Positions 9,228 to 25,155 of a stretch of 32,000 nt of DNA are shown here, one piece after another. The first letter of the stretch is position 1. Each line of letters starts with the position of its first letter. The notes under the pieces were generated by a model. The model had not been told where the DNA came from. It saw only the letters and a list, made by a program, of their open reading frames with translations, and made no database searches. The translations under genes and the position numbers were made by a program. This DNA comes from Nitrosopumilus maritimus SCM1 (GTDB lineage: Archaea > Thermoproteota > Nitrososphaeria > Nitrososphaerales > Nitrosopumilaceae), in the NCBI RefSeq assembly GCF_000018465.1, contig NC_010085.1, forward strand, positions 1,320,001-1,352,000, written 5' to 3'.

Positions 9228-9983
9228 TTAATCCTCAAGTATTTTGAATATTTGACCGTCAGGTCCTATTATTTTATTATCCTGAATTAGTGGGACTGGA
9301 TCAGCCCATTCTTCAACGTAAACCTGATTGTAAAATCCCCCATGTTGCCAAGTGCAAGTGGTTGTTTTGAGTTTAGTAGTTCCATTACTCATACCCTTAT
9401 CACCAATTTTGTTTTCGGGATCTAGACAATCTTGAATAATTTTCTCTAGTTGATCACTCATCCACCATTGTTTTTTATTCCATTCACATTTTTCATAATC
9501 AAACATCCATAATCCTCCTTCATTCTCAGGTCTTGGTTCAGGTTTACATTCAGGCTCAGGTTCAACTTGAGTATTTTCAATTATGTCTAGAGGGAAACTG
9601 CCATAGTTATTTTGGATAACATCTACATCTGTACATCTATCTAATGCTATAGAGTATCCATATTGTTGAATTTCAGAAGTAAATGCGGGTTTTATTGTCT
9701 TCAAATCATCACAAGTAAATTCTAGAAAATCATGATAATGATCAATGTATTGAATTTCATCAGAGGATAAGAAACCTTTTTCACTGCAATATACTAATTC
9801 TGGCAGATATTTTTCTTGAAACACTTGAATATGCATTCTTTGCAGGTGTGCTGTTTCAAACAATTCTTGGCAATGAATCATTCTGTCCTGAATTATGAAG
9901 TAAGGAGTAATGTATGGAGACAATGAAATTATTAAAGCAATTGCAACAATAACAGAAATTATTATCAAAAGTCGAGTTTTCAT
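9228..9983 (-). CDS. membrane-anchored/secreted Cys-rich hypothetical protein (251 aa), operon gene 2
   Basis: N-terminus MKTRLLIIISVIVAIALIISL. It contains a P/E-rich linker EPEPECKPEPRPE. Its start overlaps the upstream stop (9980-9983). Confidence 0.6.
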   Translation of the reverse strand: MKTRLLIIISVIVAIALIISLSPYITPYFIIQDRMIHCQELFETAHLQRMHIQVFQEKYLPELVYCSEKGFLSSDEIQYIDHYHDFLEFTCDDLKTIKPAFTSEIQQYGYSIALDRCTDVDVIQNNYGSFPLDIIENTQVEPEPECKPEPRPENEGGLWMFDYEKCEWNKKQWWMSDQLEKIIQDCLDPENKIGDKGMSNGTTKLKTTTCTWQHGGFYNQVYVEEWADPVPLIQDNKIIGPDGQIFKILED

Positions 9984-11845
9984 TTTTTATCATCAACAGG
10001 TATTATTGAAAATCCATCACTAGAACCCTTAAGAATTGCGGTAATTTTTTCTTGTTTCAAATCAAAAGTTACAGTGACAAAGAGATATTTTTCTTCAACA
10101 TTGAATTTCAGTCCAACATGTTGATTTAGTGGTGGATTTTTTCTGTCAACTGAAAACGAACAACATTCAACATCATATGTATAGCCATCAAGTATTGATG
10201 AGACTTTGTTATTTTTGAGTACTTCAGATATCACAAAATCACGAGCGTCATCAGATAGATGATCCATACTATTTTCTCCAGGAACAGTTCTCAATTCTTC
10301 AATCATGTTTTGCCTTGCTTCCAAGTCATCAGGAGTAAGTTCTTCATAGTGATGTCTTGTAGGATCCTCATCTAGTACAGTAAAATCAAATTCTATTGGA
10401 GGAGACAAGGCAGTAGGATTTTCAATGCTCTGCCACACAAAGAATACAACCCTGTAGTCTCCTGCAACATTTGGAATCCACGAGGTAGCTGGGCTAAAAG
10501 AGGACAGAGGGTTTAGGGTTCCATCAATCCAAGACAATGCTTGAGTTTTTTTGTCACTGTCAATAATTTGTGCAATCCAGACAAATCGTTGTTCACGGTC
10601 TTGTTGATTTGCAATATCAGAGGTAAGTAGCACCTGCTCTCCAACTACAGGATAAACAATGGTGTTGTGTTTCAGATCAGATATTCTTGGAGCACTTACT
10701 GGTGCACGCTCCAATGGAGGGCCAGTAGAGCCCAATAGTGTAGTTGCAGTCAGAAAATTTTTCGAATCAATTGATTGTTGAGGATCATACAGTGCAGTCA
10801 TTGTATCTCCTTGATTTCCATACAGAATATTGGGTCCAGAACGTTTGTCACTAAATGCAAATGTACGCTCAAAGACTCCTGAATCTTTACTTGTTTCATA
10901 AAGATCAATTGTTATTCCTTCAAGGGAGCTATCAGAGAGGATTTTGGCTTTAACAGTGTCAATGCTGTTTGCAAACTTGTTTTGCTCATGATCAGTTACA
11001 ATAATTTTAGCAGAGCTTGTACCATTTTTTGTACTGTAATTTGCCTGACTCCACTCTATATTTTTAGCATCTAGTTGTTCAAATGGAAATGGATGCAACT
11101 CTACAGATACAGCTAAATCATCATTGACAGAATAGGGTTTTGGAAGTGTATGGTCATCATACTGTACATAGATAACATCATCAGGTAGTGCATACAAACT
11201 ACGTCCACTTGAATCATCTTGTGAAGTAGAGAAATAGGCTACAAAAGTTCCAGGACTGTCATGTAGTTCTTTTGCATCAATAACTAGTCCTGCTTTATCA
11301 GAATCAGAAAATACCTGAATAGAAAGTGTATCCAGAGTATCAGGATTAAGATTCATGTCAGGATCATTGACTGTTATGAGAAATGATTCTCCATATCCAT
11401 TAAACATTCTAGTATAATCCATAGTACCGACATTCCAGTTAATTTTTACAGATTTTTTTATCTCATCACCATCTGCAAATCTTACTAGAATTGTAAATTC
11501 ATCATCTCTGCTGCTCTCAAGAAATCCATTGTTAGGTCCAGTTCCCGTTGTGCGAGGATTTGTGTCATACTTTCCATCGCCATTTACATCATGCAAAAAT
11601 CCAGTCAAGATTATCTCTCCAGTGTACAATCCGTTTCCAGCCTTTGCTAGCTTGTAGTTTCTTATCTCATGATCTTCAGTATAGACTCTAACTGATGCAC
11701 CATCTGAATCAACTCCATGCTCTGTGATTCTAATGTTGATTTTATCAGTCCACGTGTATGGGGATTTGTCAAGAGAGATAGCAGCAAAAGCAGGAGAGAC
11801 AGTAATTATGATAATACTAAAAATTACAACCAAGAAAAATTTCAT
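9980..11845 (-). CDS. large secreted protein (621 aa) with repeated beta-rich modules, operon gene 1
   Basis: Signal peptide MKFFLVVIFSIIIITVSPAFA|A. Three divergent modules end in small-G-aromatic motifs (AGNGLYTGEI, HDSPGTFVAYF, SKDSGVFERTF) reminiscent of archaeal surface-protein repeats. No enzymatic motif seen. Confidence 0.6.
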   Translation of the reverse strand: MKFFLVVIFSIIIITVSPAFAAISLDKSPYTWTDKINIRITEHGVDSDGASVRVYTEDHEIRNYKLAKAGNGLYTGEIILTGFLHDVNGDGKYDTNPRTTGTGPNNGFLESSRDDEFTILVRFADGDEIKKSVKINWNVGTMDYTRMFNGYGESFLITVNDPDMNLNPDTLDTLSIQVFSDSDKAGLVIDAKELHDSPGTFVAYFSTSQDDSSGRSLYALPDDVIYVQYDDHTLPKPYSVNDDLAVSVELHPFPFEQLDAKNIEWSQANYSTKNGTSSAKIIVTDHEQNKFANSIDTVKAKILSDSSLEGITIDLYETSKDSGVFERTFAFSDKRSGPNILYGNQGDTMTALYDPQQSIDSKNFLTATTLLGSTGPPLERAPVSAPRISDLKHNTIVYPVVGEQVLLTSDIANQQDREQRFVWIAQIIDSDKKTQALSWIDGTLNPLSSFSPATSWIPNVAGDYRVVFFVWQSIENPTALSPPIEFDFTVLDEDPTRHHYEELTPDDLEARQNMIEELRTVPGENSMDHLSDDARDFVISEVLKNNKVSSILDGYTYDVECCSFSVDRKNPPLNQHVGLKFNVEEKYLFVTVTFDLKQEKITAILKGSSDGFSIIPVDDKK

Positions 11846-13684: not shown

Positions 13685-14440
13685 TCATCTAGTTTTCAGC
13701 AAAGTCTTGTGAATCTTGGAGCCGTACTGTAACGCTTTCTTTCGTTTGTTACATGAAACTTCAGGAACGCCGACTTTACTTGCAAGTTTTCTTATCATGT
13801 GTTTGCGATAGATGTCTTCAGAATCTGTAATCTTGTCTGAAATTGGTACAGTCTTTGCATATGTGATAAAATCTGGTGAGAGTAATGGCTGTAGAATTTG
13901 TACTCCAAATTCAGATGCAATCATGTTTACTGCCTTCATCATTTTGAGTTCATTGTCAAGTTTGTCCTCCATTACCTCTTGGATTTTGGATTCGCCACCT
14001 GAAAACGCCTCCCTGTACGCATTATATCCACAGAATAGCTCATCAATTCCGTTTGCAGTAACTACTGTACAAATCCCTAGACTCTTTGCAAGCTTTGATA
14101 CGTAATGAAATGCAATACAGTTTTCATTCCAAGACAAATTGTCAGTTTTGATTTTATCGTGAATGCCTGATGATATTGATGGAAATGTTTCAGGTTCAAT
14201 TTCTAAGATATGATGAGGGTAATTCAGTTGTTCATTGACTTCTTTTGCAAACAAGATATCATGGGATTCAGCAAATCCAATTGTAAGTAGTGTAATGTCA
14301 TAATCCATGTCTTTGCAGATTTTGGAGATTAGTGTGCTATCAACACCACCTGAATATGCAATTCCAATTTTTTTATCTGTAACTGTTTGAGTAATTGCAG
14401 TTTTGATGTTATCAAATAGTTCTTGATATTTTGCATCCAT
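13685..14440 (-). CDS. PP-loop ATP pyrophosphatase, asparagine-synthase C-terminal-domain-like
   Basis: PP-loop IGIAYSGGVDSTLISK (SGGxDS) plus ANGIDELFCGYNAY, which resembles the AsnB synthetase-domain motif. No glutaminase domain is present. Confidence 0.7.
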   Translation of the reverse strand: MDAKYQELFDNIKTAITQTVTDKKIGIAYSGGVDSTLISKICKDMDYDITLLTIGFAESHDILFAKEVNEQLNYPHHILEIEPETFPSISSGIHDKIKTDNLSWNENCIAFHYVSKLAKSLGICTVVTANGIDELFCGYNAYREAFSGGESKIQEVMEDKLDNELKMMKAVNMIASEFGVQILQPLLSPDFITYAKTVPISDKITDSEDIYRKHMIRKLASKVGVPEVSCNKRKKALQYGSKIHKTLLKTR

Positions 14441-14546
14441 GGTATCTCTCTAGTTTCTATAAAGGGTAATGAATCAACCTCTAAATCAGCTTTTTAGGCA
14501 CAACAATTAGAATTTTAACTGTTAAGAATTTAGGAGATTGTGTAGA

Positions 14547-15326
14547 ATGAATACAAAGTTACTTCGCAATTTAGGAATAGCAGCTGTAGTTGTAATTGTC
14601 ACAATATTTGCAGTTGGGTCAATAGAACAGCAAGAACAAAAACTTGATTCTGTAGAAAATAAAATAGAAGTAGAAAGTGTTCCTGTAGAAAATGAAATTG
14701 AAGTAAAAAATGAACCTGTAGAAAATAAAATAGTAGAAAGTGTTCCTGTAGAAAAGCAAATAGTAGTAAAATCCACAGAATGTTCAGGAGATGCTTTGTG
14801 TTTTTCTGGTAAAATTACGCAGATAATTGATGGAGACACTGTTAAAGTCGATGGAAAGTCTATACGATTTGCACTAGTTGATGCTCCTGAATTAAAATAC
14901 GATGGCGGACAAGCAAAACAATTTCTCGAACAAGTTTGTCCAGTTGGATCTCAAGTTATAGTTGATCAGGATGACGATCAACTTTCAGACAAGTATGGCA
15001 GAATGTTAGGAGTGATTTACTGTAATGGTATGAATCTAAATCAAGAAATACTTGATTCAGGTATTGGAGATCTTTATGAAGCATTTTGTGATCAAAGTGA
15101 ATTTGCTACTCATTATTGGGCAACAAAACATGGATGTGGTGATTCAGAAGATGAAATAACAACTCAACAAATTCAAGACTGTGATTCATCTTATCCTGAC
15201 TTTTGCATTCCATCTTCACCACCTGATTTAGATTGTGGCGATATCTCTCAGAAAGATTTCACAGTATTGCAACCGGATCCACATAGATTTGATGGGGATA
15301 AGGATGGCATTGGATGTGAATCCTGA
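14547..15326 (+). CDS. membrane-anchored thermonuclease (SNase-like) with C-terminal Excalibur Ca-binding domain
   Basis: Contains a TM anchor (LGIAAVVVIVTIFAVG) and an acidic VE-repeat linker. The SNase core is GKITQIIDGDTVKVDGKSIRFALVDAPE...YGRMLGVIY..G.NLNQEILDSG, and the Excalibur motif is DPHRFDGDKDGIGCE. I prefer ATG at 14547 over the track TTG at 14538. Confidence 0.75.
   Translation: MNTKLLRNLGIAAVVVIVTIFAVGSIEQQEQKLDSVENKIEVESVPVENEIEVKNEPVENKIVESVPVEKQIVVKSTECSGDALCFSGKITQIIDGDTVKVDGKSIRFALVDAPELKYDGGQAKQFLEQVCPVGSQVIVDQDDDQLSDKYGRMLGVIYCNGMNLNQEILDSGIGDLYEAFCDQSEFATHYWATKHGCGDSEDEITTQQIQDCDSSYPDFCIPSSPPDLDCGDISQKDFTVLQPDPHRFDGDKDGIGCES
14652..14768 (+). repeat. in-frame imperfect tandem repeat encoding VENKIEVESVP / VENEIEVKNEP / VENKIVESVP / VEKQIVV
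   Basis: GTAGAAAATAAAATAG..TAGAAAGTGTTCCT recurs at 14652 and 14718, with shorter GTAGAAAA units between. It lies entirely inside the nuclease CDS. Confidence 0.8.
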
Positions 15327-15363: not shown

Positions 15364-15639
15364 ATGAGATTATCACCTGAAGAGATTACAGAGGAGCTCA
15401 AGAATCTACCAGGATGGAGTGTTGTAAATGAGAAACTACACAAAGAAATTGAATTTGAGAGTTTCAATCAGGCATTTGGGTTTATGACCAGAGCTGCAAT
15501 GGAGATTGAAAAGATGAATCATCATCCAGAGTGGTTTAACGTGTATAATAGACTCGTAATAGATTTGATGACTCACGATGCTGGCGGCATTACAAAAAAT
15601 GACATCAATCTGGCTCGAATCCTAAATTCCCTACTTTGA
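15364..15639 (+). CDS. pterin-4a-carbinolamine dehydratase (PCD/DCoH)
   Basis: 91 aa with the family signature [34 protein letters not shown]. Confidence 0.88.
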
Positions 15640-15701: not shown

Positions 15702-16520
15702 ATGACAACAAATCCCGTAATGCTTGATTCAGATTTCAAGTATATCGACAAGAAAGGAAATCTAATGAAGACTAGAACAGAGTTGACAGTAGCACAAATG
15801 CTAGACTTTCTTGAAGACGAATACCAGTACAATCACAAAGTTACATTGAAAAGTGGAACTGAAGTTACAGTTGATTTCAAAACTGACAAGGGACTAATTG
15901 AAGTAATTGACAATGAAGAGGACATTGCAAAGTACAAACAGATCAAAGAAGACTTTCCTGATCAAAAAGTAATGGCAATTGGACACGGAAAGTATGCTGC
16001 ACAGCTAAAAGAGTTGCAAGATATTGTATTTTATGATAAATCACCACAAACAGGTTCTATCTTTTTGGATGATGGATCATTTGCATTTGATTATGCACAC
16101 ATCTTGCCACTAGTTGAGAAATGTTCGATTCTACATGGACATACATCATCTGTAATGGTGGAATTGGTTGGACAGATGAAAGACAATCTACTTGTAGACT
16201 TTGGAGAAGCAAAAAGAATTGTCAAAGATGTATTGACTGCATTTGATCACAAGTTTTTCATTAATAGAAAGTACATGAAATCTGAAGATGATTCTCATTA
16301 TGTAATAAAATTTGAAGGACCTAAAGGAATGTTTGAGTTACAAGTTCCAAAACATACAACATATCTTTTAGAAGGAGAAGCTACTGTAGAGAATTTATCA
16401 AGTGAGCTTATCAAATTACTAGCACCTAAGATGCCATCAAACGTTGAAGCTGTTGGCGTTTACATTTACGAGGGATACAACAAGGGTTCCCACATTATAT
16501 CAAACATCTCAAAAGATTAA
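15702..16520 (+). CDS. 6-pyruvoyl-tetrahydropterin synthase (PTPS/QueD)-like protein with extra N-terminal domain
   Basis: The C-terminal half FDYAHILPLVEKCSILHGHTSSVMVELVG...LLVDFGEAKRIVKDVLTAFDHKFFIN matches the PTPS pattern (AaH-L...C..LHGH.y.v.V..G...DF..lk..v......DH..lN). The N-terminal ~125 aa are unassigned. Confidence 0.7.
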   Translation: MTTNPVMLDSDFKYIDKKGNLMKTRTELTVAQMLDFLEDEYQYNHKVTLKSGTEVTVDFKTDKGLIEVIDNEEDIAKYKQIKEDFPDQKVMAIGHGKYAAQLKELQDIVFYDKSPQTGSIFLDDGSFAFDYAHILPLVEKCSILHGHTSSVMVELVGQMKDNLLVDFGEAKRIVKDVLTAFDHKFFINRKYMKSEDDSHYVIKFEGPKGMFELQVPKHTTYLLEGEATVENLSSELIKLLAPKMPSNVEAVGVYIYEGYNKGSHIISNISKD

Positions 16521-16644: not shown

Positions 16645-17190
16645 ATGGCACAGGTTTTAGAAAAAAAGGGAGGACCATACCCAAAAAATAAGAAAATTAA
16701 GCGACAAAATGAGGTATTTCGTTTACATTTTGATTTAGGTTATTCTGCAGTAAAAATTTCTGAAATGATGAATGTTAATCGTAACACCGTTAATGGGGAC
16801 ATCCATTATTGGTATGGAATTCTTTCAAAAGAATGGGAGAGTTATGATATTGAAGCATGGCATATGAAACAGGTTCACAGATTAGAGTCTCAGAGAACCA
16901 GATTGTTTCAAGAGTTGGAAAAGACTACAGAAACCACAGTAAAGTTATCTATTGAAAGAATGATTTTGGATATTGATATCAAAATGACAAACTTTGTTTC
17001 AAAATCAGTGTATACTCAAGATTGGTTGAGAGATAGATCAGTAGCTTGGATCAATAAATGGGCAAAAGAGAACAATTCAAAGTATAGATTACTTGATGCA
17101 AATGCAGCTTGGTATACTAGTGAAGAGATTACTGAAAAGGTTCGTAAATTAATTCATGATGGTAAGATTGAGAAACGTGGAAAGATTTGA
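16645..17190 (+). CDS. hypothetical protein with putative N-terminal helix-turn-helix
   Basis: 181 aa. RQNEVFRLHFDLGYSAVKISEMMNVNRNTVNGDIHYW looks like a three-helix HTH (resolvase/terminase-small-subunit style). The remainder is helical and unassigned. Confidence 0.45.
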   Translation: MAQVLEKKGGPYPKNKKIKRQNEVFRLHFDLGYSAVKISEMMNVNRNTVNGDIHYWYGILSKEWESYDIEAWHMKQVHRLESQRTRLFQELEKTTETTVKLSIERMILDIDIKMTNFVSKSVYTQDWLRDRSVAWINKWAKENNSKYRLLDANAAWYTSEEITEKVRKLIHDGKIEKRGKI

Positions 17191-17218: not shown

Positions 17219-17626
17219 TCAGATGGGATAGTGAGGCATAAGATCCCTTGCAAGAAACTTTTTGATGTCGCCACCTTTTTCGTTCTGATAACCTACAACA
17301 CATTCTGAACCTCCAAGTTCAAAAATCCAGTCCATGCAGCTACCACAAGGTGTGAATTGTGTCCTTTGTGCCACCACAAGAATCGCCGTTAACTTTGTGC
17401 AGCCGCTTGATACCAAAGATGATATTGCTGAAACCTCTGCATGTATGTCGTGTGAACGGAATTTGTGTTCTATGTTGCATCCGGAAAAAATTTTCCCTTC
17501 TCCGGAAACCACTGCTGCACCAACCTGCGTCTTTCCAAGAACTCGTGCATTGGAATGAGAGTTCCAAGCAATTTCAGACATCTGATTCCAAATAGATTCT
17601 TCGACCAAGACACTCAACTTTTCCAT
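17219..17626 (-). CDS. cdd: cytidine/deoxycytidylate deaminase family protein (small CDA-like)
   Basis: Zinc-binding motifs HAEVSAI (H-A-E) and TPCGSCMDW (PCxxC) have the correct spacing in a 135-aa protein. Its ATG lies inside the last 13 nt of the upstream NACHT gene. Confidence 0.8.
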   Translation of the reverse strand: MEKLSVLVEESIWNQMSEIAWNSHSNARVLGKTQVGAAVVSGEGKIFSGCNIEHKFRSHDIHAEVSAISSLVSSGCTKLTAILVVAQRTQFTPCGSCMDWIFELGGSECVVGYQNEKGGDIKKFLARDLMPHYPI

Positions 17627-20079
17627 TCACCCTTTTTGTATTTTGATAATCGTTCTTCCCAATCTTCATCATGCACATGATCTGATTTTGATTCCTTTAC
17701 CTTTTCGAGCAAGGGAATCACAGACTCATCCCATTGCCCATATGCATTTCTGTAAAAGACTGTCTTTCCAATTTCATCAAGAATGTTTTTCCTTAATTTC
17801 GAAGCCATATTTCCTAATTTGTCTAGGATATCTTTACGCATATCCGCATCTTCAGTGATTGCAGCCATTTCCACCAATGCACGAGCAGCACCATATCGTA
17901 CCCAATGATAGGGGTCTGTTTCTAGAGCAATGAATAGTAGTTTTTTATTTTCCTCTGAGGGGCACTTTCCAAGTGGATGAATAATCCTCCATCTACGGGT
18001 GTTCTGATTTGGAACATCTGCATCAGAATAATCATACATGTCTCTTAGATCTTTTTGGTTTTCCTCACTTAGATTGCATTCACGTAAAACATTTGATGCA
18101 GTCCAACCAATCAAAGAATTGTCAGATTTTAACAACTTGAGAGTTTCATCATTGATTTCTGAATCACGTTTAATGGTAAACAATTGTTTCCATTCATCAA
18201 ACAAATCTGATTCAGATTTCATGACACTTATCATATCTATTAATTCTTTAAGATTATTTGCTTTAGTCAATTGTTCACCAAAGGTTTTCTCATAATCTCC
18301 CAAGTGATTTTTTGCAGATTCAGAAGTTTCATAACCATTATCAAATTGTTTTTGTGCAACCAATACTAACATTGCAGTAACTATATCTTCAGAATGATTG
18401 TTAATTCCTAACTTGGAATTTAATATGATGGATGCAATTGCAGCTTTCCAATTCCAATCATATACCTCCAACAAAAATCTGTCAGCAAGTTCTTTATTTT
18501 CGATCTGTTGCATTACCAGATGGATAGATTCTAGTGAACTGGACTCCAAAGTAGCTATGTCAAATTCATCTACATCCCAATTCTCTGGGTGTGATGCCAA
18601 ATATTCGGATACAAGAAAATCATGTAATAATTGATGACTAAATGTTGCATGGGTGTCACTTGTCGTAAATGCCGCACCTCCACCTAACAGTTTATCAAAT
18701 GTCTCTTGTCCTGTAATCTCTACAAAGTTTTTCAACTCAAATGATACCGAACCTTCTTGATATGCAAAAAATGACGCTTTTGCTAATTTCTTCATTTCCT
18801 CCTCATTCATCTTCAATCTCTCTTTGAAGAAATCATTTAGTACGGAAGATTCAGAAGTCATAGAAGCTGAACATCTCTCCATGGCAATATTGAGAAAGAA
18901 TGGTCTGGATAACAAACTCATGCTTACATCATTCAACTCATATTGTTCTTTACCAATAGTAATGTCTAGATTTTTTCTTATCTCTTCTTCACTCAAAGGA
19001 TTCAATGTAATTTTGTTCCATCCTGTAAGTGCACCACGTACATCCATCCTGTCCGTTAGCAGAACATATGTGTGAGGAGAAGTTTGTCTTACATATTCTC
19101 CTACATCTTGAATTATTTTTTCTGTTAATTCACCAAAATCGCCTGATTTGAATTCATTTATGCCATCAATCACTATTATGACATCTCCCTCAAAACTTTT
19201 GAGACGTTCCACTGTAATTTCCACACTAGACATTTTCAGCAGTTTGTCTATGCGTGACTCAGCACTTTCATCTCTCGCATCCTCCAATTCTTTAAAAAAT
19301 TCTGTTTCACTTCCATTAATGGGGATAAAAACAGGAAGAACCTTTTCTTTAACAATAGATTTGAGAAACTCTGTAACTGTGTTACTCTTTCCGCTTCCTG
19401 CAGCGCCTTTTAGGATTACTTTTCTTTTTGATTTTATGATTGAATGTAATTCAGTTATTGGAAATTTTTCTCCGTTTTCATCAGAAAATGTAATCCCAAA
19501 CTTATGTTCTGGTGGGGGTTTAGCTTCAAGTTTTGTAGTAAGTTCTTTAAGATATGATAAAAGGTTTAGATTTCCTTGCTGAAATTGTTGATCTTGGTCT
19601 CCAGAATCTTTTGTAACAGTTTGTTCATGAACTTCTTTAAGTATTCCAATTGCTTTATCCATTTTACTATCTAACTTTGTGGCAATATTCAGAATTTTTT
19701 GATTATATGCTGTCATAATTTTCTGAAAAGATGTTTCAGCTCCTTCCATCTCAATTTTTTGTTTTATTTCTGTTAACAGTTTTTCTGAATCAAATTTGTA
19801 TTCTGTATCTTGAAATGCATTTTCTAGTCCTTTAAGCAGGTTCAGGAAGTCTTGAACAGATCCTTCAGATAATTTTTTGAAATTGTCTGAAAATTCTTGT
19901 TTTGACAAAACATCAATTAGTATATCTCTACTTTCTGGATATTTGGCGCCAAATTCATCAATAATTTCTGTACGATATTCATTCCAATTCCACTTGAATG
20001 ATTTTTGAGCAAACTTGAATATCATTTCTGCAAGGGATAGTCCTAATCCTATCTCAGAAGACATGTTTTCTTCATTCAT
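17614..20079 (-). CDS. STAND NTPase: unassigned N-terminal helical domain + NACHT-type P-loop + C-terminal HEAT-like repeats
   Basis: Walker A is VILKGAAGSGKSNTV and Walker B is DVIIVIDGINEF (the NACHT-style hhhhDGhxE). The C-terminus has DPYHWVRYGAARALVEMAA (PBS-lyase/HEAT-like). The first ~215 aa are helical with no motif I recognise. Confidence 0.75.
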   Translation of the reverse strand: MNEENMSSEIGLGLSLAEMIFKFAQKSFKWNWNEYRTEIIDEFGAKYPESRDILIDVLSKQEFSDNFKKLSEGSVQDFLNLLKGLENAFQDTEYKFDSEKLLTEIKQKIEMEGAETSFQKIMTAYNQKILNIATKLDSKMDKAIGILKEVHEQTVTKDSGDQDQQFQQGNLNLLSYLKELTTKLEAKPPPEHKFGITFSDENGEKFPITELHSIIKSKRKVILKGAAGSGKSNTVTEFLKSIVKEKVLPVFIPINGSETEFFKELEDARDESAESRIDKLLKMSSVEITVERLKSFEGDVIIVIDGINEFKSGDFGELTEKIIQDVGEYVRQTSPHTYVLLTDRMDVRGALTGWNKITLNPLSEEEIRKNLDITIGKEQYELNDVSMSLLSRPFFLNIAMERCSASMTSESSVLNDFFKERLKMNEEEMKKLAKASFFAYQEGSVSFELKNFVEITGQETFDKLLGGGAAFTTSDTHATFSHQLLHDFLVSEYLASHPENWDVDEFDIATLESSSLESIHLVMQQIENKELADRFLLEVYDWNWKAAIASIILNSKLGINNHSEDIVTAMLVLVAQKQFDNGYETSESAKNHLGDYEKTFGEQLTKANNLKELIDMISVMKSESDLFDEWKQLFTIKRDSEINDETLKLLKSDNSLIGWTASNVLRECNLSEENQKDLRDMYDYSDADVPNQNTRRWRIIHPLGKCPSEENKKLLFIALETDPYHWVRYGAARALVEMAAITEDADMRKDILDKLGNMASKLRKNILDEIGKTVFYRNAYGQWDESVIPLLEKVKESKSDHVHDEDWEERLSKYKKGEWKS

Positions 20080-20204: not shown

Positions 20205-21287
20205 TTATTTGAGATTTTTTCTTATTTCATGTGCTAATGATTCTGCCACCAAAGGAGGAACTGCATCTGCAATTTGCTGATATTGTGAATTATTTGTGCC
20301 AAAAAATCTGAATGAGTCTGGAAAACTCTGTATTCTAGCTGCCTCTCTTACAGATATTATTCTATTTTCTTTAGGATGTAACAACATAGCTCGTCTTGCA
20401 TGAACAATTGTAGGAGTTGTATGTTGATAAGATAAACGTCTATAGATATTACCATGAAGAGAATTTTTATTTTTGAATCTAGATTTTGTTTTTTTAGATA
20501 GTGTTTTCCATGAATCAAGTAAACTTCTTCCTTCGTTAATTTCAGAAATTGTATTGATTACATCTTCTCCGTGTTTCGTACACCAATGATTGTACAAGTT
20601 ATTGATGTTTCCTCCTAATTTTTTTCCATATGGGGAATTAAATTTTTTAGGATGTTTCATAATTTCGTTTCCAGATGTACCTTGTTTTATAGAAGGTAAT
20701 CCTGAAATGACATCAAAAAGATTATCGCATGAAACAGGAATTTTGATCAAATTCAAATTACATTCATGTCCATTCAAAAAACCTGTTACAAAGAGTCGTT
20801 TTCGTTTTTGTGGAAGTCCTGCTTTTTCACAATCAATCACAGATACGCTCAGAATGTATCCTAATTTTTTAAAATCATTGAGGAATTTTTTCCAACCTGG
20901 GAGATTTCTAAAATTGGTAACATTTTCAAATAAAAATGCCTGAGGTTTTAATTCAGATATTATTCTGAAATAATGATTTATAGCATTTGCAAAGGGATGA
21001 TTTTTGCCATTATTTTGTTTATTTGCATTTGAATAAGGTTGACAAGGAGGTCCTCCTATTACACAAAATCTCTCTTTTGATGTGATTTTTTTTAGTTCGT
21101 TTGATTTTATGTTTTTTATATCATCTACAATTAATTTAGTCTCCTTGAAATTTTTTGAATATGTTTCAGCAGCACTCTTATCAAATTCCACTGCTGCAAT
21201 GACTTTGAACCCTGCATTCTTAAATCCTAAACTTAATCCACCTGAACCTGCAAATAGATCGATAACGCCAATTTCTTCTTTCCTCAT
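20205..21287 (-). CDS. DNA (cytosine-5)-methyltransferase
   Basis: All conserved m5C MTase blocks are readable. They are I DLFAGSGGLSLGF, IV GGPPCQPYS, VI FLFENV, VIII QKRKRLF, IX SVREAARIQSFPDSFRF and X QIADAVPPLVAESLA. Confidence 0.93.
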   Translation of the reverse strand: MRKEEIGVIDLFAGSGGLSLGFKNAGFKVIAAVEFDKSAAETYSKNFKETKLIVDDIKNIKSNELKKITSKERFCVIGGPPCQPYSNANKQNNGKNHPFANAINHYFRIISELKPQAFLFENVTNFRNLPGWKKFLNDFKKLGYILSVSVIDCEKAGLPQKRKRLFVTGFLNGHECNLNLIKIPVSCDNLFDVISGLPSIKQGTSGNEIMKHPKKFNSPYGKKLGGNINNLYNHWCTKHGEDVINTISEINEGRSLLDSWKTLSKKTKSRFKNKNSLHGNIYRRLSYQHTTPTIVHARRAMLLHPKENRIISVREAARIQSFPDSFRFFGTNNSQYQQIADAVPPLVAESLAHEIRKNLK

Positions 21288-21363: not shown

Positions 21364-22236
21364 ATGGCCTTATTTTTTAATGACCCAAAATTCCATACAA
21401 TCTATGAAAAAATAATGGATCTCAATGAATTGGTTTGGGAGAATAAATTAGATCCCTTTATGATTGAACAATGGCTAGAAAACTTTGATACTAAATCTGA
21501 TAAATTAGAAATGTTGGAATTGTTATCTAAATTTACTTATTACAATGAAAAAGAAATTTCTTCTCTTCTCACGTCCTCTTTTGAACTCTTGAAAAGCTAT
21601 TTGAGTTTGATTCACCTAAATCAAAAAATTGAAATTAGTGATTTGAATGAATTTGTGAAAAACAACTGTTATTTCGTTGGGACATGGGAAAATCCCAGTA
21701 AAAGTGGAGTTCATCTTTTATATGATTTTAGAGTTTTAAACAAATTACCCCCCAGAATTTTTTGTAACACTGTAAAAGATGTTCCAAAAAATGCACCGTT
21801 TGTTATTTTTCTTGACGATATTGCTGGTAGTGGAAGACAGGCCAGCGACTTCTGGAATCTACGAGTAATAAAGGAAAGAAAACATCTAACAAATACGAAA
21901 TTTCTCTATTTGGTATTGGTTGGAAATGAAAAGGGTATTGAGTATATTGAGACAAAAACTAAGATCAAAGTTCTTCCAGTGGTAAAATTAGATGATAGAT
22001 ACAAATTATTTTCAAAATCATCTATTTATTTCCCTGACAAAAAAAAGAGGCAAAAAGTACAAAAAATTTGTGAAAAATATGGGAAGAGACTATATGCCAA
22101 TAACCCTCTAGGTTTTGCAAATTCTCAAATGTTAATAGGCTTCCATCATAATATACCTGATAATACGTTACCAATAATATGGGAAAATAAAAATAACTGG
22201 GATCCAATATTCCCACGTTTTGGAGCTGTGGTGTAA
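21364..22236 (+). CDS. phosphoribosyltransferase (PRTase)-fold-like protein, first gene of three-gene operon
   Basis: 290 aa. The hydrophobic-DD-small-GSG loop PFVIFLDDIAGSGRQASDFW resembles the PRPP-binding loop of type I PRTases (hhhhDD-x-x-T/S-G-x-T). The preceding YFVGTWENPSKSGVHLLYDF resembles the PRTase core. The N-terminal ~110 aa are helical and unassigned. Confidence 0.45.
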   Translation: MALFFNDPKFHTIYEKIMDLNELVWENKLDPFMIEQWLENFDTKSDKLEMLELLSKFTYYNEKEISSLLTSSFELLKSYLSLIHLNQKIEISDLNEFVKNNCYFVGTWENPSKSGVHLLYDFRVLNKLPPRIFCNTVKDVPKNAPFVIFLDDIAGSGRQASDFWNLRVIKERKHLTNTKFLYLVLVGNEKGIEYIETKTKIKVLPVVKLDDRYKLFSKSSIYFPDKKKRQKVQKICEKYGKRLYANNPLGFANSQMLIGFHHNIPDNTLPIIWENKNNWDPIFPRFGAVV

Positions 22237-22241
22237 AGAGC

Positions 22242-24224
22242 ATGCAAATTAGAAATCCCTTTGAAGAAGTAAATGCAAATAATCTAGATGATGATGAAAT
22301 CTTAGATTTTTGGATTAAACCTGAGGGTATTTTCAACAAACAGCTTGAGGGAATCAAATTAACTGGTCTCACTCCATTGTTTTTATTTGGTGGAAGGGGT
22401 ACTGGAAAAACTACCGTTTTAAAATACATGTCATTTGATCTACAACAAAAAGAATTTCTTAAAAAAAATACTGACATGAAAAATTTCTTAACAAAAAATA
22501 ATTTCATAGGAATTTATCATAGATTTGATGGTCCACAACTGGACGCATTTAATGCAGGACCAGATGATCGAAAATGTCTTGAAGCATTTCGATTTTTTAT
22601 TGAACTTGTACTATCACAAAATTTCCTTTGGATTGTTGAAAAACTTCTAGAAAACAAATCCATCACTTCAAAATTTAATGAAAAAACCCTATGTGCTAAT
22701 ATCTCTGAATTAATTTTTGGCAAAAAAATCACATCTTTGTCTACCATCTCAAAAATTAGGAAAAAATTAGGAACTATTCAGTATTCCTTAGAGAAAGCAC
22801 GAGATAAATCTGCAATAGATGGAAAAGAAATTGATATTAAAAATATAATTCCTAGAGGTAGACTAATTTTCGATCTACAAAATGAAATCACAAAAACTAT
22901 TCAAGAACTCAAAAACATAAAAATTCTTTATTTGTTTGATGAGTATGAAAATCTCACATATGATCAACAATTACTTTTCAATACTCTGATCAAACATAGG
23001 AAATTCAATGTAAGTTTCAAAATTGGTTCTCGTTTAAAGGGTGTGAAAACTTACGATACATTAACAACTGAGGAATATCTTAGAGAACCTGCTGATTATA
23101 GAAAAATAATCTTTGAAAATATTCTAAATGTCTCGTCATTAGAATACAAAAAAATTCTTATTAAAATTGCTGAAAAACGCTTACGTCACATTCCTGAATT
23201 TAAATCAAAGAATCTAACCGATATTAAAAAAATCCTGGGCTATAGCCTTTCACCTGAACAAGAAGCCAATAGGATTGTTAACTCTAGCAAAGACAAACGA
23301 AAACATTTCTACAAAATTGAAAAACACAAAAAAACTTCAATTAGTGAAAAAACAATATCTGACTTAAAATGTGAAGGAAGGCCATTAATTGAAAAACTGA
23401 ATATGATGTTATTAAATCGAAACTATCCAATATCTAAAATCAAACTAATGATGAACCATTTTGTTTCTAGAAACTCAAAATCAAGTTATCATAAACAATA
23501 CAAAAATCTCTATGACAAAAACAAAGTTGCTTTATTGTTTCAATTGATATCTGACTACAGACCTAGGGAGAAACAATATTCTGGATTTGATACTTATGTG
23601 AGTCTTTCTTCTGGTATCATAAGGACTTTCCTAGAATTATGTTTTCATGCATTTCATTTTGCAATATTTGCCGAACAAAAGAATTTGTTATCTGGTAAAC
23701 CAATATCTCACGAATTACAAAATGATGCTGCAAAATTAATGTCACAGAAATATTATGAAGAAATTGCAGTGATTCCTAAAGGCTATGGGGTGTTTGTTGC
23801 TAGATTAGTTGATAACATTGGTTCAATTTTACGTGGATTACATAAAGATCCTCTAATTTCTGAACCTGAACCCACATACTTTACAATTGAATATGAAAAT
23901 CTTGATTTGAAAACTAGAAGTGTTATTGACACTGCAGAACAATGGTCAATTTTACAACGAACTATTTCTATGAAGCCAAAAGCAAAATTACAAGCACATC
24001 TAACTGATTTTCATATTAATAGAATGTTCTGTCCAAAATATTCAATTTCATATCGTAGACGAGGTAGAACATTAATCACTCCATCTGAAATACACATTCT
24101 AACATTTGGGAATGAACAAGAACAAAAAACTATTCGTGAATTAGTTAGTAGAGAAAAAGAAGTTAGAAAGGCTAGGAAAGTCAGAGACCAAGGACAACCC
24201 AAAATTATTGATTTTTTAGATTAA
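22242..24224 (+). CDS. P-loop ATPase (AAA/ORC-Cdc6-like N-terminal domain) with large unassigned C-terminal region
   Basis: Walker A is LFLFGGRGTGKTTVLKYM and Walker B is KILYLFDEYENL. It starts 5 nt after the upstream stop. About 400 C-terminal residues carry no motif I recognise. Confidence 0.65.
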   Translation: MQIRNPFEEVNANNLDDDEILDFWIKPEGIFNKQLEGIKLTGLTPLFLFGGRGTGKTTVLKYMSFDLQQKEFLKKNTDMKNFLTKNNFIGIYHRFDGPQLDAFNAGPDDRKCLEAFRFFIELVLSQNFLWIVEKLLENKSITSKFNEKTLCANISELIFGKKITSLSTISKIRKKLGTIQYSLEKARDKSAIDGKEIDIKNIIPRGRLIFDLQNEITKTIQELKNIKILYLFDEYENLTYDQQLLFNTLIKHRKFNVSFKIGSRLKGVKTYDTLTTEEYLREPADYRKIIFENILNVSSLEYKKILIKIAEKRLRHIPEFKSKNLTDIKKILGYSLSPEQEANRIVNSSKDKRKHFYKIEKHKKTSISEKTISDLKCEGRPLIEKLNMMLLNRNYPISKIKLMMNHFVSRNSKSSYHKQYKNLYDKNKVALLFQLISDYRPREKQYSGFDTYVSLSSGIIRTFLELCFHAFHFAIFAEQKNLLSGKPISHELQNDAAKLMSQKYYEEIAVIPKGYGVFVARLVDNIGSILRGLHKDPLISEPEPTYFTIEYENLDLKTRSVIDTAEQWSILQRTISMKPKAKLQAHLTDFHINRMFCPKYSISYRRRGRTLITPSEIHILTFGNEQEQKTIRELVSREKEVRKARKVRDQGQPKIIDFLD

Positions 24225-24225
24225 A

Positions 24226-25155
24226 ATGAAAAATATCCAAGAACTTGATTCATTAATCCAAGTAAAACCGTTAGAATATGATTATTTTATTTATACAAAA
24301 AATTCAGAAAAGAGATCATCAAACGTACTAAATATTTTTAAAAAATCAAAAATCAAAATTAAAAATTTAATTGAATTACAGTTTGAAGACACTCAAACAC
24401 CTAAAATCAGAACAATTGGATCAAGATATGTGATCACTTGTCCTTACAGACATGTTCTTATGGGCATTAAATCTATTTTTGACTTATTACACAATCTACA
24501 TTTCAAAATTAATGATAAGGTGTGTATTGATATTACTGGTACTGATGTACCATATTTTTTCCATCTTCTAAAAACACTCAAATTTAAAAAAATGTTATCA
24601 AAAATTGATTTAGTATACACAGAACCTGAAACATATAAAAAAACTTCAAATAAATTTATTTTTTCCGAGGGAATTAGAAATGTAAAACAATTTCCTGCAT
24701 ATACTGGAAGAACAAACCCAAATGGGAAAAAAATACTTTTGATTTTAATAGGTTTTGAAGGACACCGTTCATACAAAGTCTTAGACTCTATTGAGCCCGA
24801 CAAAACATTGGCGCTAAATGGATTTCCAAGTTATTCGTTAGAATTCAAAGATACTAGTATTCTTGAAAACAAAGAACTGTTAACTAGTCCATCATGTAAA
24901 AATAATACTCTTTTAGCATCAGCACACAATCCTTTTGAAACATTAAAAATTCTCAATAATCTTCCGTCTAGCCACAAGAAACATAATTTAATCATGGCTC
25001 CTATAGGAACAAAACCTATGTCTTTAGGGGCTTGTCTTTATTGTCTCAAAAATGAATCGGTTCGCGTAGTTTTTCCTTATCCCAATTCATATATTTCCAA
25101 AAATGCACCTGCAGAAAAAATTGGTAAAACTTGGATCTATCAATTAGTTCTTTGA
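24226..25155 (+). CDS. hypothetical Rossmann-like protein with DITGT and IGTKPMSLGA motifs (possible CARF/DxTGGTK-like ligand-binding fold)
   Basis: 309 aa, starting 1 nt after the upstream stop. Beta-strand-then-glycine patterns (KVCIDITGTDVPYFFHLL; KILLILIGFEGHRS; HNLIMAPIGTKPMSLGACLY) suggest Rossmann-like units. GTKxMS resembles the DxTGGTKxMS motif of some CARF-family proteins. Weak, by-eye only. Confidence 0.35.
   Translation: MKNIQELDSLIQVKPLEYDYFIYTKNSEKRSSNVLNIFKKSKIKIKNLIELQFEDTQTPKIRTIGSRYVITCPYRHVLMGIKSIFDLLHNLHFKINDKVCIDITGTDVPYFFHLLKTLKFKKMLSKIDLVYTEPETYKKTSNKFIFSEGIRNVKQFPAYTGRTNPNGKKILLILIGFEGHRSYKVLDSIEPDKTLALNGFPSYSLEFKDTSILENKELLTSPSCKNNTLLASAHNPFETLKILNNLPSSHKKHNLIMAPIGTKPMSLGACLYCLKNESVRVVFPYPNSYISKNAPAEKIGKTWIYQLVL

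Follow-up and report, generated by a model that had tools for sequence, protein, structure and literature searches.

An apparent NLR-type defence module pairing a NACHT-HEAT NTPase with a cytidine-deaminase-like partner and tied to cytosine methylation, from Nitrosopumilus to Streptomyces

NLR-like STAND proteins are central to animal, plant, fungal and bacterial immunity, and how the prokaryotic versions are triggered and restrained is largely obscure. Here, we analyse a stretch of 32,000 nucleotides from the archaeon Nitrosopumilus maritimus SCM1 (contig NC_010085.1, positions 1,320,001 to 1,352,000; hereafter the window, meaning the whole stretch). Within it, three genes form one locus: Nmar_1472, encoding an NLR-like STAND NTPase; Nmar_1471, encoding a zinc deaminase related to cytidine deaminase (CDA); and Nmar_1473, encoding a C5 cytosine DNA methyltransferase (C5-MTase). 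The closest described relatives of the NTPase, bNACHT and Avs proteins, likewise combine a variable N-terminal effector, a NACHT-type STAND NTPase and C-terminal repeats, and bNACHT architectures include PNPase N-termini and HEAT C-termini (bioRxiv 10.1101/2022.07.19.500537). Across bacterial NLR-related proteins, the effector is accepted to reside in such variable enzymatic domains at the N-terminus. Deaminases go unmentioned in the bNACHT study, which describes operons as rare and poorly conserved (bioRxiv 10.1101/2022.07.19.500537). The Nmar_1472 family is of this bNACHT-like kind. Unlike bNACHT and Avs, it has a separate, coupled deaminase partner, C5-MTase and Vsr neighbours, and a C-terminal domain that is conserved rather than diversified; the PADLOC models, including those for bNACHT and Avs, do not match Nmar_1472.

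The nearest pair of an ATPase and a deaminase is RADAR, although its proteins are unrelated to those described here. RdrB, its deaminase, acts on adenine nucleotides and is a large member of the adenosine-deaminase family, with no relation to the CDA fold. RADAR also consists of two genes, for a large oligomeric P-loop ATPase (RdrA) and a separate nucleotide deaminase, and assembles into one complex (PMC9994260). Unlike Nmar_1472, RdrA is an AAA+ ATPase rather than a NACHT STAND protein; the N. maritimus pair has no PADLOC RADAR match, and RADAR has no link to cytosine methylation. Two further defence proteins, the anti-phage dCTP deaminase and AvcD, are reportedly single large proteins with an N-terminal kinase-like domain. 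They resemble Nmar_1471 as zinc-dependent cytosine-nucleotide deaminases (Tal et al. 2022; Hsueh et al. 2022), whereas Nmar_1471 is a 135-aa CDA-type protein with no kinase domain, no PADLOC match and an NLR partner. A literature search returned no description of the pair, of Nmar_1471-1473 or of a NACHT-deaminase-Dcm/Vsr link, and no report of anti-phage protection by the pair. Nor is the pair described in the Aravind-lab surveys that cover NTP-dependent conflict systems and the deaminase fold. The arrangement had also been unfamiliar to a preliminary description of this DNA, which was made from its letters without database searches. What is new here is an NLR-type module with a separately encoded cytosine deaminase partner, specifically tied to cytosine methylation. 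It looks like an undescribed, widespread defence module.

Databases name Nmar_1471 as CMP/dCMP deaminase zinc-binding and Nmar_1473 as DNA cytosine methyltransferase. The names of Nmar_1472 differ: hypothetical, 'HEAT repeat domain-containing' (RefSeq) or 'NACHT domain-containing' (UniRef). The locus has the following features, all on the minus strand and in window coordinates:

17219..17626, minus strand: Nmar_1471, CDA-like zinc deaminase, 135 aa (ATG at 17624-17626; PF00383)
17336-17350, minus strand: PCGSC of Nmar_1471, aa 93-97
17435-17443, minus strand: HAE of Nmar_1471, aa 62-64
17614..17626, minus strand: 13-nt overlap ATGGAAAAGTTGA of NTPase stop and deaminase start
17614..20079, minus strand: Nmar_1472, NLR-like STAND NTPase, open reading frame (ORF) of 821 aa in three regions (TGA stop at 17614-17616)
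17617..18579, minus strand: C-terminal HEAT-like alpha-solenoid, aa 501-821 (from invariant columns, HEAT_2 in a homologue and alphaRep matches)
18580..19494, minus strand: NACHT-type P-loop NTPase module, aa ~196-500 (from invariant residues, NACHT in a homologue and structural matches)
19048-19059, minus strand: LTDR sensor motif of Nmar_1472
19153-19182, minus strand: Walker B VIIVIDGINE, aa 300-309
19384-19407, minus strand: Walker A GAAGSGKS, aa 225-232
19495..20079, minus strand: N-terminal domain of Nmar_1472, aa 1-195, all-helical in the AlphaFold2 (AF2) model, without Pfam match
aa 98-157 of Nmar_1472, minus strand: long helix of the N-terminal domain
20011-20052, minus strand: conserved hydrophobic first helix IGLGLSLAEMIFKF of the N-terminal domain
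20205..21287, minus strand: Nmar_1473, C5-MTase, 125 nt upstream of the pair on the same strand (PF00145, 2.7e-67)

The ORFs, the stop and start coordinates, the 13-nt overlap and the motifs given in the preliminary description are confirmed in the sequence. It overlooked the C5-MTase at 20205..21287, the specific recurrent neighbour of the pair. The deaminase start is annotated in three ways, as 120 aa (GenBank), 132 aa (RefSeq) and 135 aa (the conserved ATG), and the NTPase start in two, as 816 aa (RefSeq) and 821 aa (GenBank). We infer that the 132-aa RefSeq protein uses an in-frame TTG start at codon 4, giving a 4-nt TTGA overlap. An ME[KR]L N-terminus at the ATG is conserved among homologues. 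Coupling is preserved with either the ATG or the 132-aa start.

The NTPase and the deaminase are paired far beyond chance. A deaminase lies immediately downstream at all five NTPase homologues from the sequence search (48-100% identity), and again at one more archaeal NACHT-HEAT pair (L115). A genome scan with the deaminase recovered six actinobacterial loci (Micromonospora, Microbacterium, Phytohabitans and three from Streptomyces), and in all six an NTPase homologue ends at the deaminase start; the Micromonospora NTPase aligns at 28% identity over 660 aa (E 8e-77). For an unbiased test, metagenomes were scanned with an NTPase alignment alone, without reference to the deaminase; this yielded 80 loci with flanks of up to 4 kb. 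At 47 of these, a CDA-like gene directly follows the NTPase. We re-examined the 33 CDA-negative loci. Four are truncated, and 15, missed by the CDA profile, carry instead a dCMP-deaminase/ComEB-like gene of ~150-170 aa with the motifs TEHAERNAI...PWFPCMDCA (L033, L053, L062, L063, L067, L077, L079-L082, L084, L085, L093, L095 and L096). This gene is placed downstream, convergent or upstream of the operon, and a 467-aa calcineurin-like phosphoesterase comes after it at L085, L095 and L096. The two deaminase classes thus displace each other non-orthologously at NTPase loci. Altogether, a cytosine-type deaminase is present at 62 of 76 evaluable metagenome loci (82%), a co-occurrence on which the preliminary description had made its proposal depend. 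At some NACHT-HEAT loci that have no deaminase, the downstream slot holds a HAD-family hydrolase (L065/L066, L092) or a caspase (L034); re-examination of the remaining deaminase-free loci revealed no recognisable gene in the slot.

The pair is dedicated, co-inherited and translationally coupled; the preliminary description had judged co-transcription and coupling almost certain. Across 57 independent pairs, the NTPase stop is overlapped or abutted by the deaminase start, most often with 4 nt shared (22/57). From this stop to the first deaminase codon aligned with the profile, the median distance downstream is 14 nt. Pairwise identities of the two proteins correlate in a mirror-tree comparison (r = 0.68, Mantel p = 0.001); identity averages 32% in the NTPase core and 55% in the deaminase. 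No NTPase-deaminase fusion occurs among 149 representatives or at any locus, an absence that fits an enzyme needing to oligomerise on its own. The pair spans Nitrosopumilus to Streptomyces. In Micromonospora, a tyrosine integrase immediately upstream of the pair (L008 5746-6903) suggests that it is carried on an integrative element; the 972-aa ORF at that locus is possibly over-extended at its 5' end. A tblastn search with a Streptomyces NTPase against PLSDB plasmids gave no matches.

The NACHT and HEAT assignments are firm for the NTPase family and sub-threshold for Nmar_1472 alone. The preliminary description had called this single protein a NACHT-HEAT NTPase; the call stands on family profiles and structures, and Nmar_1472 by itself does not reach it in Pfam. 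In an exhaustive HMMER profile search, the family comprises 687 representatives (clustered at 50% identity), and for 448 of these E<=1e-30. Word-indexed protein searches with the NTPase found the same five proteins only, and the family is visible through the exhaustive search and DNA-pattern scans. Taken alone, Nmar_1472 has sub-threshold or borderline Pfam matches, such as AAA_5 (22.0 bits against a cut-off of 22), NPHP3_N (18.5) and AAA_22. Pfam NACHT (PF05729) is absent from its match list; a Streptomyces homologue (L010) passes this model (28.1 against 26.7 bits) and other homologues score ~22 bits. HEAT_2 matches Nmar_1472 at 1.3e-3 and homologues at 3e-15 (the same Streptomyces protein), 2e-11 and 1.5e-9. 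No PADLOC or NCBIfam model matches Nmar_1472.

Conserved residues and structural matches identify the same two modules. The Walker A, Walker B (DGxNE) and TDR sensor motifs are invariant in the NTPase family, and across 25 diverse members so are G228, K231, D305, E309, D343 and R344. An AF2 model of the NTPase, built on five sequences and informative for fold class only, has NLRC4, NLRP9, NLRP7, NOD2 and NLRP1 as its top 16 Foldseek matches, then Avs4, SAMD9 and NLRP3 (probability 1.0, from a weak model). Searched against PDB sequences, the family profile matches NLRC4, NLRP5 and synthetic HEAT proteins; the alphaRep HEAT proteins match profile positions 676-727 at 1e-8 to 1e-14. The C-terminal region is all-helical in the AF2 model. 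This HEAT-like solenoid is conserved from archaea to actinobacteria and is rich in invariant Trp, Arg and His, with the motifs YDWNW, RRWRIIHPLG and HWVRYGAARAL. Its invariant columns in the 25 members include W501, W542, W630, W659, R698, H701, W726 and W783.

The N-terminal domain, in turn, varies across the family. In Nmar_1472, AF2 predicts a helical domain of ~195 aa at low confidence (pLDDT 30-77), where the preliminary description gave a helical domain of ~215 aa; Pfam at E<=1 returns no matches for the N-terminal 217 aa. Among the clustered representatives, this archaeal domain is shared only with the closest relatives, P0001-5, P0126 and P0127. It takes the position that enzymatic domains hold in bacterial relatives. 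The commonest N-terminus is the nucleoside-phosphorylase-like PNP_UDP_1 (52 loci), either fused or as a separate overlapping upstream ORF. Others are Trypsin_2, Metallophos, a PGAP1-like alpha/beta-hydrolase and an FAD-binding-like domain, and some have no assignment. In PADLOC, the N-terminal PNP domains of relatives match CBASS and PDC effector models, and the Metallophos domains also match. The deaminase accompanies all of these N-terminal types. Since the effector-type domains vary while the deaminase is constant, the killing effectors are likely to be the N-terminal domains rather than the deaminase.

Nmar_1471 belongs to a distinct deaminase subfamily modelled with the fold of tetrameric CDA. 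It matches Pfam PF00383 at 1.9e-15 (57.1 bits against a cut-off of 25) and falls below the cut-off of all seven NCBIfam cdd equivalog models, with best scores of 63.2 against 74 (NF004064) and 60.3 against 113.65 (TIGR01354). In the AF2 model (pLDDT 88.6), the closest structures are the tetrameric CDAs of mouse (2FR5) and Bacillus subtilis (1JTK), with TM 0.79-0.84 (0.83 for the best match) at an rmsd (root-mean-square deviation) of 1.7-1.9 Å. The enzyme is probably homotetrameric. H62, E64, C94 and C97 are invariant in the family, as are the motifs GxTxVG, GCNxEHxFRSHDxHAE, FTPCGxCxDWI and LMPxYP; within the second of these, FRSHD is a conserved basic loop. Also invariant is Asn51-x-Glu53, aligned with Asn42/Glu44 of B. 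subtilis CDA, a motif that we take to bind the ribose 3'-OH in CDAs. Nmar_1471 shares fold (TM 0.83, rmsd 1.7 Å), size, this ribose motif and the PCxxC zinc motif with housekeeping Cdd. Unlike Cdd, it uses His as zinc ligand where Cdd has its first Cys, and the Arg of PCxxCRQ is missing; EHxFRSHD, FTPCGxCxDWI and LMPxYP are invariant in its family, and its context is defence-related. A search of PADLOC-DB v2 at E<=0.01 returned no families for Nmar_1471 or Nmar_1472, nor for the L010 and L115 homologues.

A neighbour-joining tree places the whole deaminase family, which is almost entirely NTPase-linked, on a long branch away from B. subtilis CDA. Housekeeping cdd identity is effectively ruled out, and the deaminase is a dedicated partner of the NTPase. 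Its substrate appears to be free nucleosides or nucleotides, judging from the CDA fold, the invariant Asn-x-Glu, the displacement by a mononucleotide-type deaminase and the presence of HAD, Metallophos or HIT genes in the same slot. At 135 aa, the subfamily offers a compact deaminase, possibly of new specificity.

The pair is linked to cytosine methylation. Every archaeal locus examined has a C5-MTase close to the pair, frequently accompanied by Vsr and a MORC-like HATPase_c_3 protein, and in Microbacterium a C5-MTase is divergently upstream. Of the 80 metagenome loci, 23 contain a C5-MTase in their flanks and 15 contain Vsr. When the 93 flanking ORFs nearest to the pair at 43 non-redundant CDA-type loci were assigned to Pfam families, DNA_methylase was counted 12 times, Vsr 6, HhH-GPD 3, HNH 2 and all others at most 2. 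Dcm occurs at 20 of 47 CDA-type loci and 3 of 29 others (p = 0.004, from uncorrected counts and inflated by phylogenetic non-independence). The methyltransferase itself is exchanged: close NTPase pairs (55-73% identity) carry Dcm genes just 26-37% identical. Between L039 and L056, the NTPase is 73%, the deaminase 85% and Dcm 29% identical; between the N. maritimus pair and L004, the corresponding values are 62%, 85% and 30%. This replacement between close relatives suggests that the linkage is to any C5 methyltransferase, whatever its sequence specificity. Nmar_1473 is a probable functional companion of the pair. C5-MTase, Vsr, HhH-GPD and HATPase_c_3 genes, which flank the pair in archaeal and bacterial loci, are also those of Dcm-Vsr and archaeal M.MthTI-Mig type pairs of methylase and T:G repair, with the MORC-like HATPase_c_3 genes linked to them. 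Such pairs are known as stand-alone or restriction-modification-associated modules; we found no report in the literature tying Dcm-Vsr-type pairs to an NLR-deaminase pair.

The deaminase also occurs without the NTPase. It has at least 892 relatives, most of them 60-67% identical sequences from Nitrosopumilus-like metagenomes. All six of the Nitrosopumilus-like relatives that were looked up form the last gene after McrB-McrC operons, with no NACHT gene. McrB is there an AAA_5 protein, often with SRA or HARE-HTH, and sometimes a HIT hydrolase follows or a separate SRA gene adjoins. On the Nitrosopumilus-like metagenome contigs L014-L019 and L109-L114, the operons run from a UvrD/PD-(D/E)XK helicase through McrB (AAA_5 with SRA, DUF8426 or HARE-HTH) and McrC to the deaminase; such McrBC-deaminase operons are abundant in marine metagenomes. 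The deaminase as the terminal gene of McrBC systems appears to be undescribed so far. In IMG/VR, nine loci carry the deaminase, eight of them without the NTPase and four with an adjacent C5-MTase; at the four loci whose neighbours were scanned, these are replication genes (RecT, DnaN, DnaB, D5 primase). On the IMG/VR proviral contigs L100, L102, L104 and L107 (GC 0.45-0.66), the deaminase adjoins a C5-MTase inside phage replication modules. A tblastn search with the prophage-type deaminase against GenBank phages gave no matches at E<=1e-10.

These other contexts are derived from the NACHT pair. In the neighbour-joining tree, the archaeal copies linked to McrBC form the sister clade of the archaeal copies linked to NACHT, nested in the NACHT-linked radiation, and five of the prophage copies (L100-L104) nest inside mainly actinobacterial NACHT-linked clades. 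This nesting suggests that the NACHT pair is the ancestral context. The preliminary description would have seen its proposal refuted if close relatives carried the same gene at this locus without the NTPase and it clustered with housekeeping Cdd; NTPase-free copies do exist in some relatives, next to McrBC, and the tree places that state as derived. The McrBC and prophage deaminases are ~65% identical, retain the catalytic residues and all motifs, and have no switch or regulator beside them. The same enzyme is therefore tolerated without the switch, which argues against a toxic enzyme. The contexts found for the family are a NACHT-HEAT gene, an McrBC operon and prophage replication genes, and never salvage.

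Our leading explanation, held tentatively and drawn from sequence comparison, is that the locus encodes a defence module of the NLR type in which the constant partner acts on cytosine nucleotides that are free and probably 5-methylated, with the deaminase not being the toxic effector. Nmar_1472 and Nmar_1471 would form the two-gene core of this conflict module, which the archaeon probably acquired from bacteria. The NACHT-HEAT protein would be an NTP-driven switch with the conserved C-terminal solenoid as its input side. The lineage-variable N-terminal domain would be the output, causing killing or arrest: helical in the archaeon, a PNP/UDP-type nucleosidase in most bacteria, and elsewhere a protease or phosphoesterase. 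The deaminase would be a separately folded enzyme, made stoichiometrically through translational coupling and acting on free cytosine nucleosides or nucleotides rather than on DNA. Its likeliest substrate would be 5-methyl-deoxycytidine or 5-methyl-dCMP (and dC/dCMP) from methylated DNA, converted to thymidine or dTMP. A 5-methyl-dC(MP) species is probably the relevant one, given the exclusive, repeatedly renewed linkage to C5-MTase and T:G repair and the recruitment of the enzyme by McrBC, which reads 5-methylcytosine (5mC). By this activity, the deaminase may condition or clear this nucleotide for the switch, whether to set a threshold, to take away a signal or to sanitise the pool. A role in conditioning or regulation is more likely than a toxic output, because the enzyme is tolerated without the switch in McrBC and phage modules and is constant while effector-type domains vary.

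Several observations weigh against this explanation. More than half of the CDA-type loci have no detected Dcm (within up to 4 kb on each side, often shortened by contig ends), and dCMP-deaminase-type loci nearly never have one (1/15). Fourteen evaluable loci lack any deaminase, the statistics of the Dcm association are inflated as stated above, and the AF2 model of the NTPase is poor (pLDDT 61, low TM in the Foldseek matches). Furthermore, the dCMP-deaminase-like substitutes match the PADLOC dCTP-deaminase model (6e-24), resembling its deaminase domain, and this likeness keeps alive the rival that ranks second, a sensor with a toxic deaminase effector. In this rival, whose outline of a sensor with a deaminase partner comes from the preliminary description, the NACHT-HEAT oligomer would release or activate the deaminase on phage sensing, so that dC/dCMP/dCTP depletion or dU flooding blocks phage DNA synthesis, with the N-terminal domain as a second effector. 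Nucleotide-depleting deaminases are proven defence effectors, an inhibitory complex is compatible with translational coupling, the same slot elsewhere holds nucleotide hydrolases (HAD, Metallophos), and the commonest N-terminus is a PNP-type nucleosidase of the kind matched by CBASS and PDC effector models. We nevertheless consider the toxic-effector reading doubtful. The deaminase is constant where typical effector domains, which are N-terminal, vary; near-identical copies stand without a regulator in McrBC operons and prophages, where a dCTP depleter would be self-harming; and the CDA fold, together with the ribose 3'-OH motif, indicates a substrate among the nucleosides or monophosphates, and deaminating these is metabolically benign. 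It also leaves the Dcm/Vsr/HhH-GPD linkage unexplained.

In another reading, the deaminase would act on 5mC in DNA. A fired NLR would then produce T:G mismatches at Dcm sites, and Vsr or HhH-GPD would nick both strands of the palindromic sites to give DNA breaks, with a restriction-like or abortive outcome. Writer (Dcm), deaminase and T:G-specific repair nucleases do specifically co-occur, and yeast CDD1, a tetrameric CDA among the structural matches, has been described as an orphan C-to-U editase. Dcm also goes with CDA-type and not with dCMP-deaminase-type loci, so the two deaminase types may work differently. Such an enzyme is improbable here: the active site of tetrameric CDA is buried between subunits, the invariant Asn-x-Glu (which, to judge from solved CDAs, contacts the 3'-OH of a free ribose) is incompatible with a residue inside a DNA strand, and the deaminase has no DNA-binding domain. 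Vsr and HhH-GPD, moreover, occur in a minority of loci, as expected for ordinary Dcm partners. Quite improbable, too, is a guard or decoy arrangement, in which the deaminase is bait for phage proteins and the HEAT domain monitors it, as in plant and animal NLR guarding. Both the co-divergence and the stoichiometric coupling would fit a stable complex. The HEAT domain shows high conservation rather than hypervariability, and the deaminase is more conserved than the NTPase. However, displacement by an unrelated dCMP-deaminase-like protein, sometimes upstream or convergent, suggests that chemistry matters and not surface; the catalytic residues are strictly conserved, and the Dcm linkage is again left unexplained. 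The preliminary description's own alternative, an ordinary pyrimidine-salvage cdd beside an inserted NACHT gene, is highly improbable. Although fold and zinc motifs are those of cytidine deaminase, and some sources use that name, the protein is under every cdd equivalog cut-off, and a long branch separates it from B. subtilis CDA. Between Nitrosopumilus and Streptomyces, the pair has been conserved with its frames overlapping and co-diverging, the gene sits in a variable, low-GC defence island amid housekeeping genes, and NTPase-free copies are found in McrBC operons or prophages and never in a salvage context. Detoxification of 5-azacytidine in Dcm-bearing cells was set aside, as it leaves the NLR partner unexplained.

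Two described systems offer conceptual precedents for the favoured role of the deaminase in processing free cytosine nucleotides. In PUA-Calcineurin-HAD, a host methylation mark released as a mononucleotide, the methylome-derived m6-dAMP, is the danger signal (bioRxiv 10.64898/2026.01.15.699771), and in the NTPase family, too, the deaminase slot is sometimes occupied by HAD and calcineurin-like genes. In Clover, a partner enzyme restrains or tunes a nucleotide-pool immune effector (PMC12265719). Unlike the case considered here, the mark in PUA-Calcineurin-HAD is Dam m6A and not Dcm 5mC, and that system is Dcm-independent. The proteins of both systems are unrelated to the pair and include neither a deaminase nor an NLR, and the analogy is a hypothesis.

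A more specific form of this idea, which we think unlikely as a whole, is a 5-methylcytosine 'methylome alarm'. The linked C5 methyltransferase, of any specificity, would mark the host chromosome, and viral DNA breakdown would free 5-methyl-dCMP or 5-methyl-dC. The Trp/Arg/His-rich HEAT-NACHT protein would sense the freed species and fire its N-terminal effector. Meanwhile, the deaminase would steadily turn the signal into (d)TMP or thymidine, such that only bursts pass the threshold and autoimmunity from DNA turnover is avoided. Vsr or HhH-GPD would cover the mutational cost of 5mC. McrBC-borne copies would keep the 5mC nucleotides of restricted phage DNA from entering host DNA, and prophage copies would act as counter-defence, destroying the alarm signal. 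If true, this would be the cytosine counterpart of the m6-dAMP trigger, and no NLR before it is known to read a nucleic-acid modification in the form of a free metabolite. More generally, an enzymatic partner and a tie to cytosine methylation provide a testable handle on NLR input and regulation. If the deaminase handles 5-methylcytosine nucleotides, then three fields kept apart so far, solitary Dcm-Vsr modules (often of obscure function), nucleotide-pool immunity and NLR signalling, would connect, and an NLR-type defence module would be placed in marine ammonia-oxidising archaea.

The pair sits in a defence island, with Dcm, PRTase-CE, ORC-CDC6-like and CARF-like genes at 20.2-25.2 kb of the window. 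The island is bordered by the housekeeping genes PTPS/pterin dehydratase and valS, its GC content dips to 0.28-0.30, and no tRNA gene was found at its border. Related loci carry McrBC, PIN, integrase, GmrSD and HNH genes. Beyond the pair and the C5-MTase, the following features stand out:

21364-25155, plus strand: three-gene module of PRTase-CE, ORC-CDC6-like ATPase and CARF-like genes, with gaps of 5 nt and 1 nt
13685-14440, minus strand: PP-loop ATPase (Asn_synthase/QueC-like), left island border, housekeeping-looking
15364-15639, plus strand: pterin-4a-carbinolamine dehydratase, left island border, housekeeping-looking
15702-16520, plus strand: PTPS/QueD-like protein with a ~125-aa N-terminal extension, left island border, housekeeping-looking

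The genes of the PRTase-CE module belong to known type III CRISPR accessory families (PRTase-CE PF24390, 3.8e-64, PADLOC PRTase_III-A; ORC-CDC6-like PF24389, 7.4e-120; PADLOC CARF6, 1.3e-151), and the window shows neither CRISPR nor cas genes. This module is the window's lowest-GC stretch (0.28-0.30). Convergent with the deaminase and 28 nt from its stop lies a 181-aa ORF (16645-17190, plus strand) with a weak sigma-70 region-4/HTH match. It has a homologue in none of the related loci and may be an island-specific regulator or recombinase remnant. A 621-aa ORF with an internal duplication and without a Pfam family (9980-11845, minus strand) is 32-34% identical to an 837-aa protein just downstream of an McrBC-deaminase operon (L015 8533-11046). 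The ORF at 14538-15326 on the plus strand appears to encode a secreted homologue of staphylococcal nuclease, with a calcium-binding Excalibur C-terminus and, in the N-terminal region, tandem VENKIEVESVP-like repeats; a 105-aa antisense ORF overlaps the repeat. The genes of the left border could act in 7-deazaguanine or pterin metabolism.

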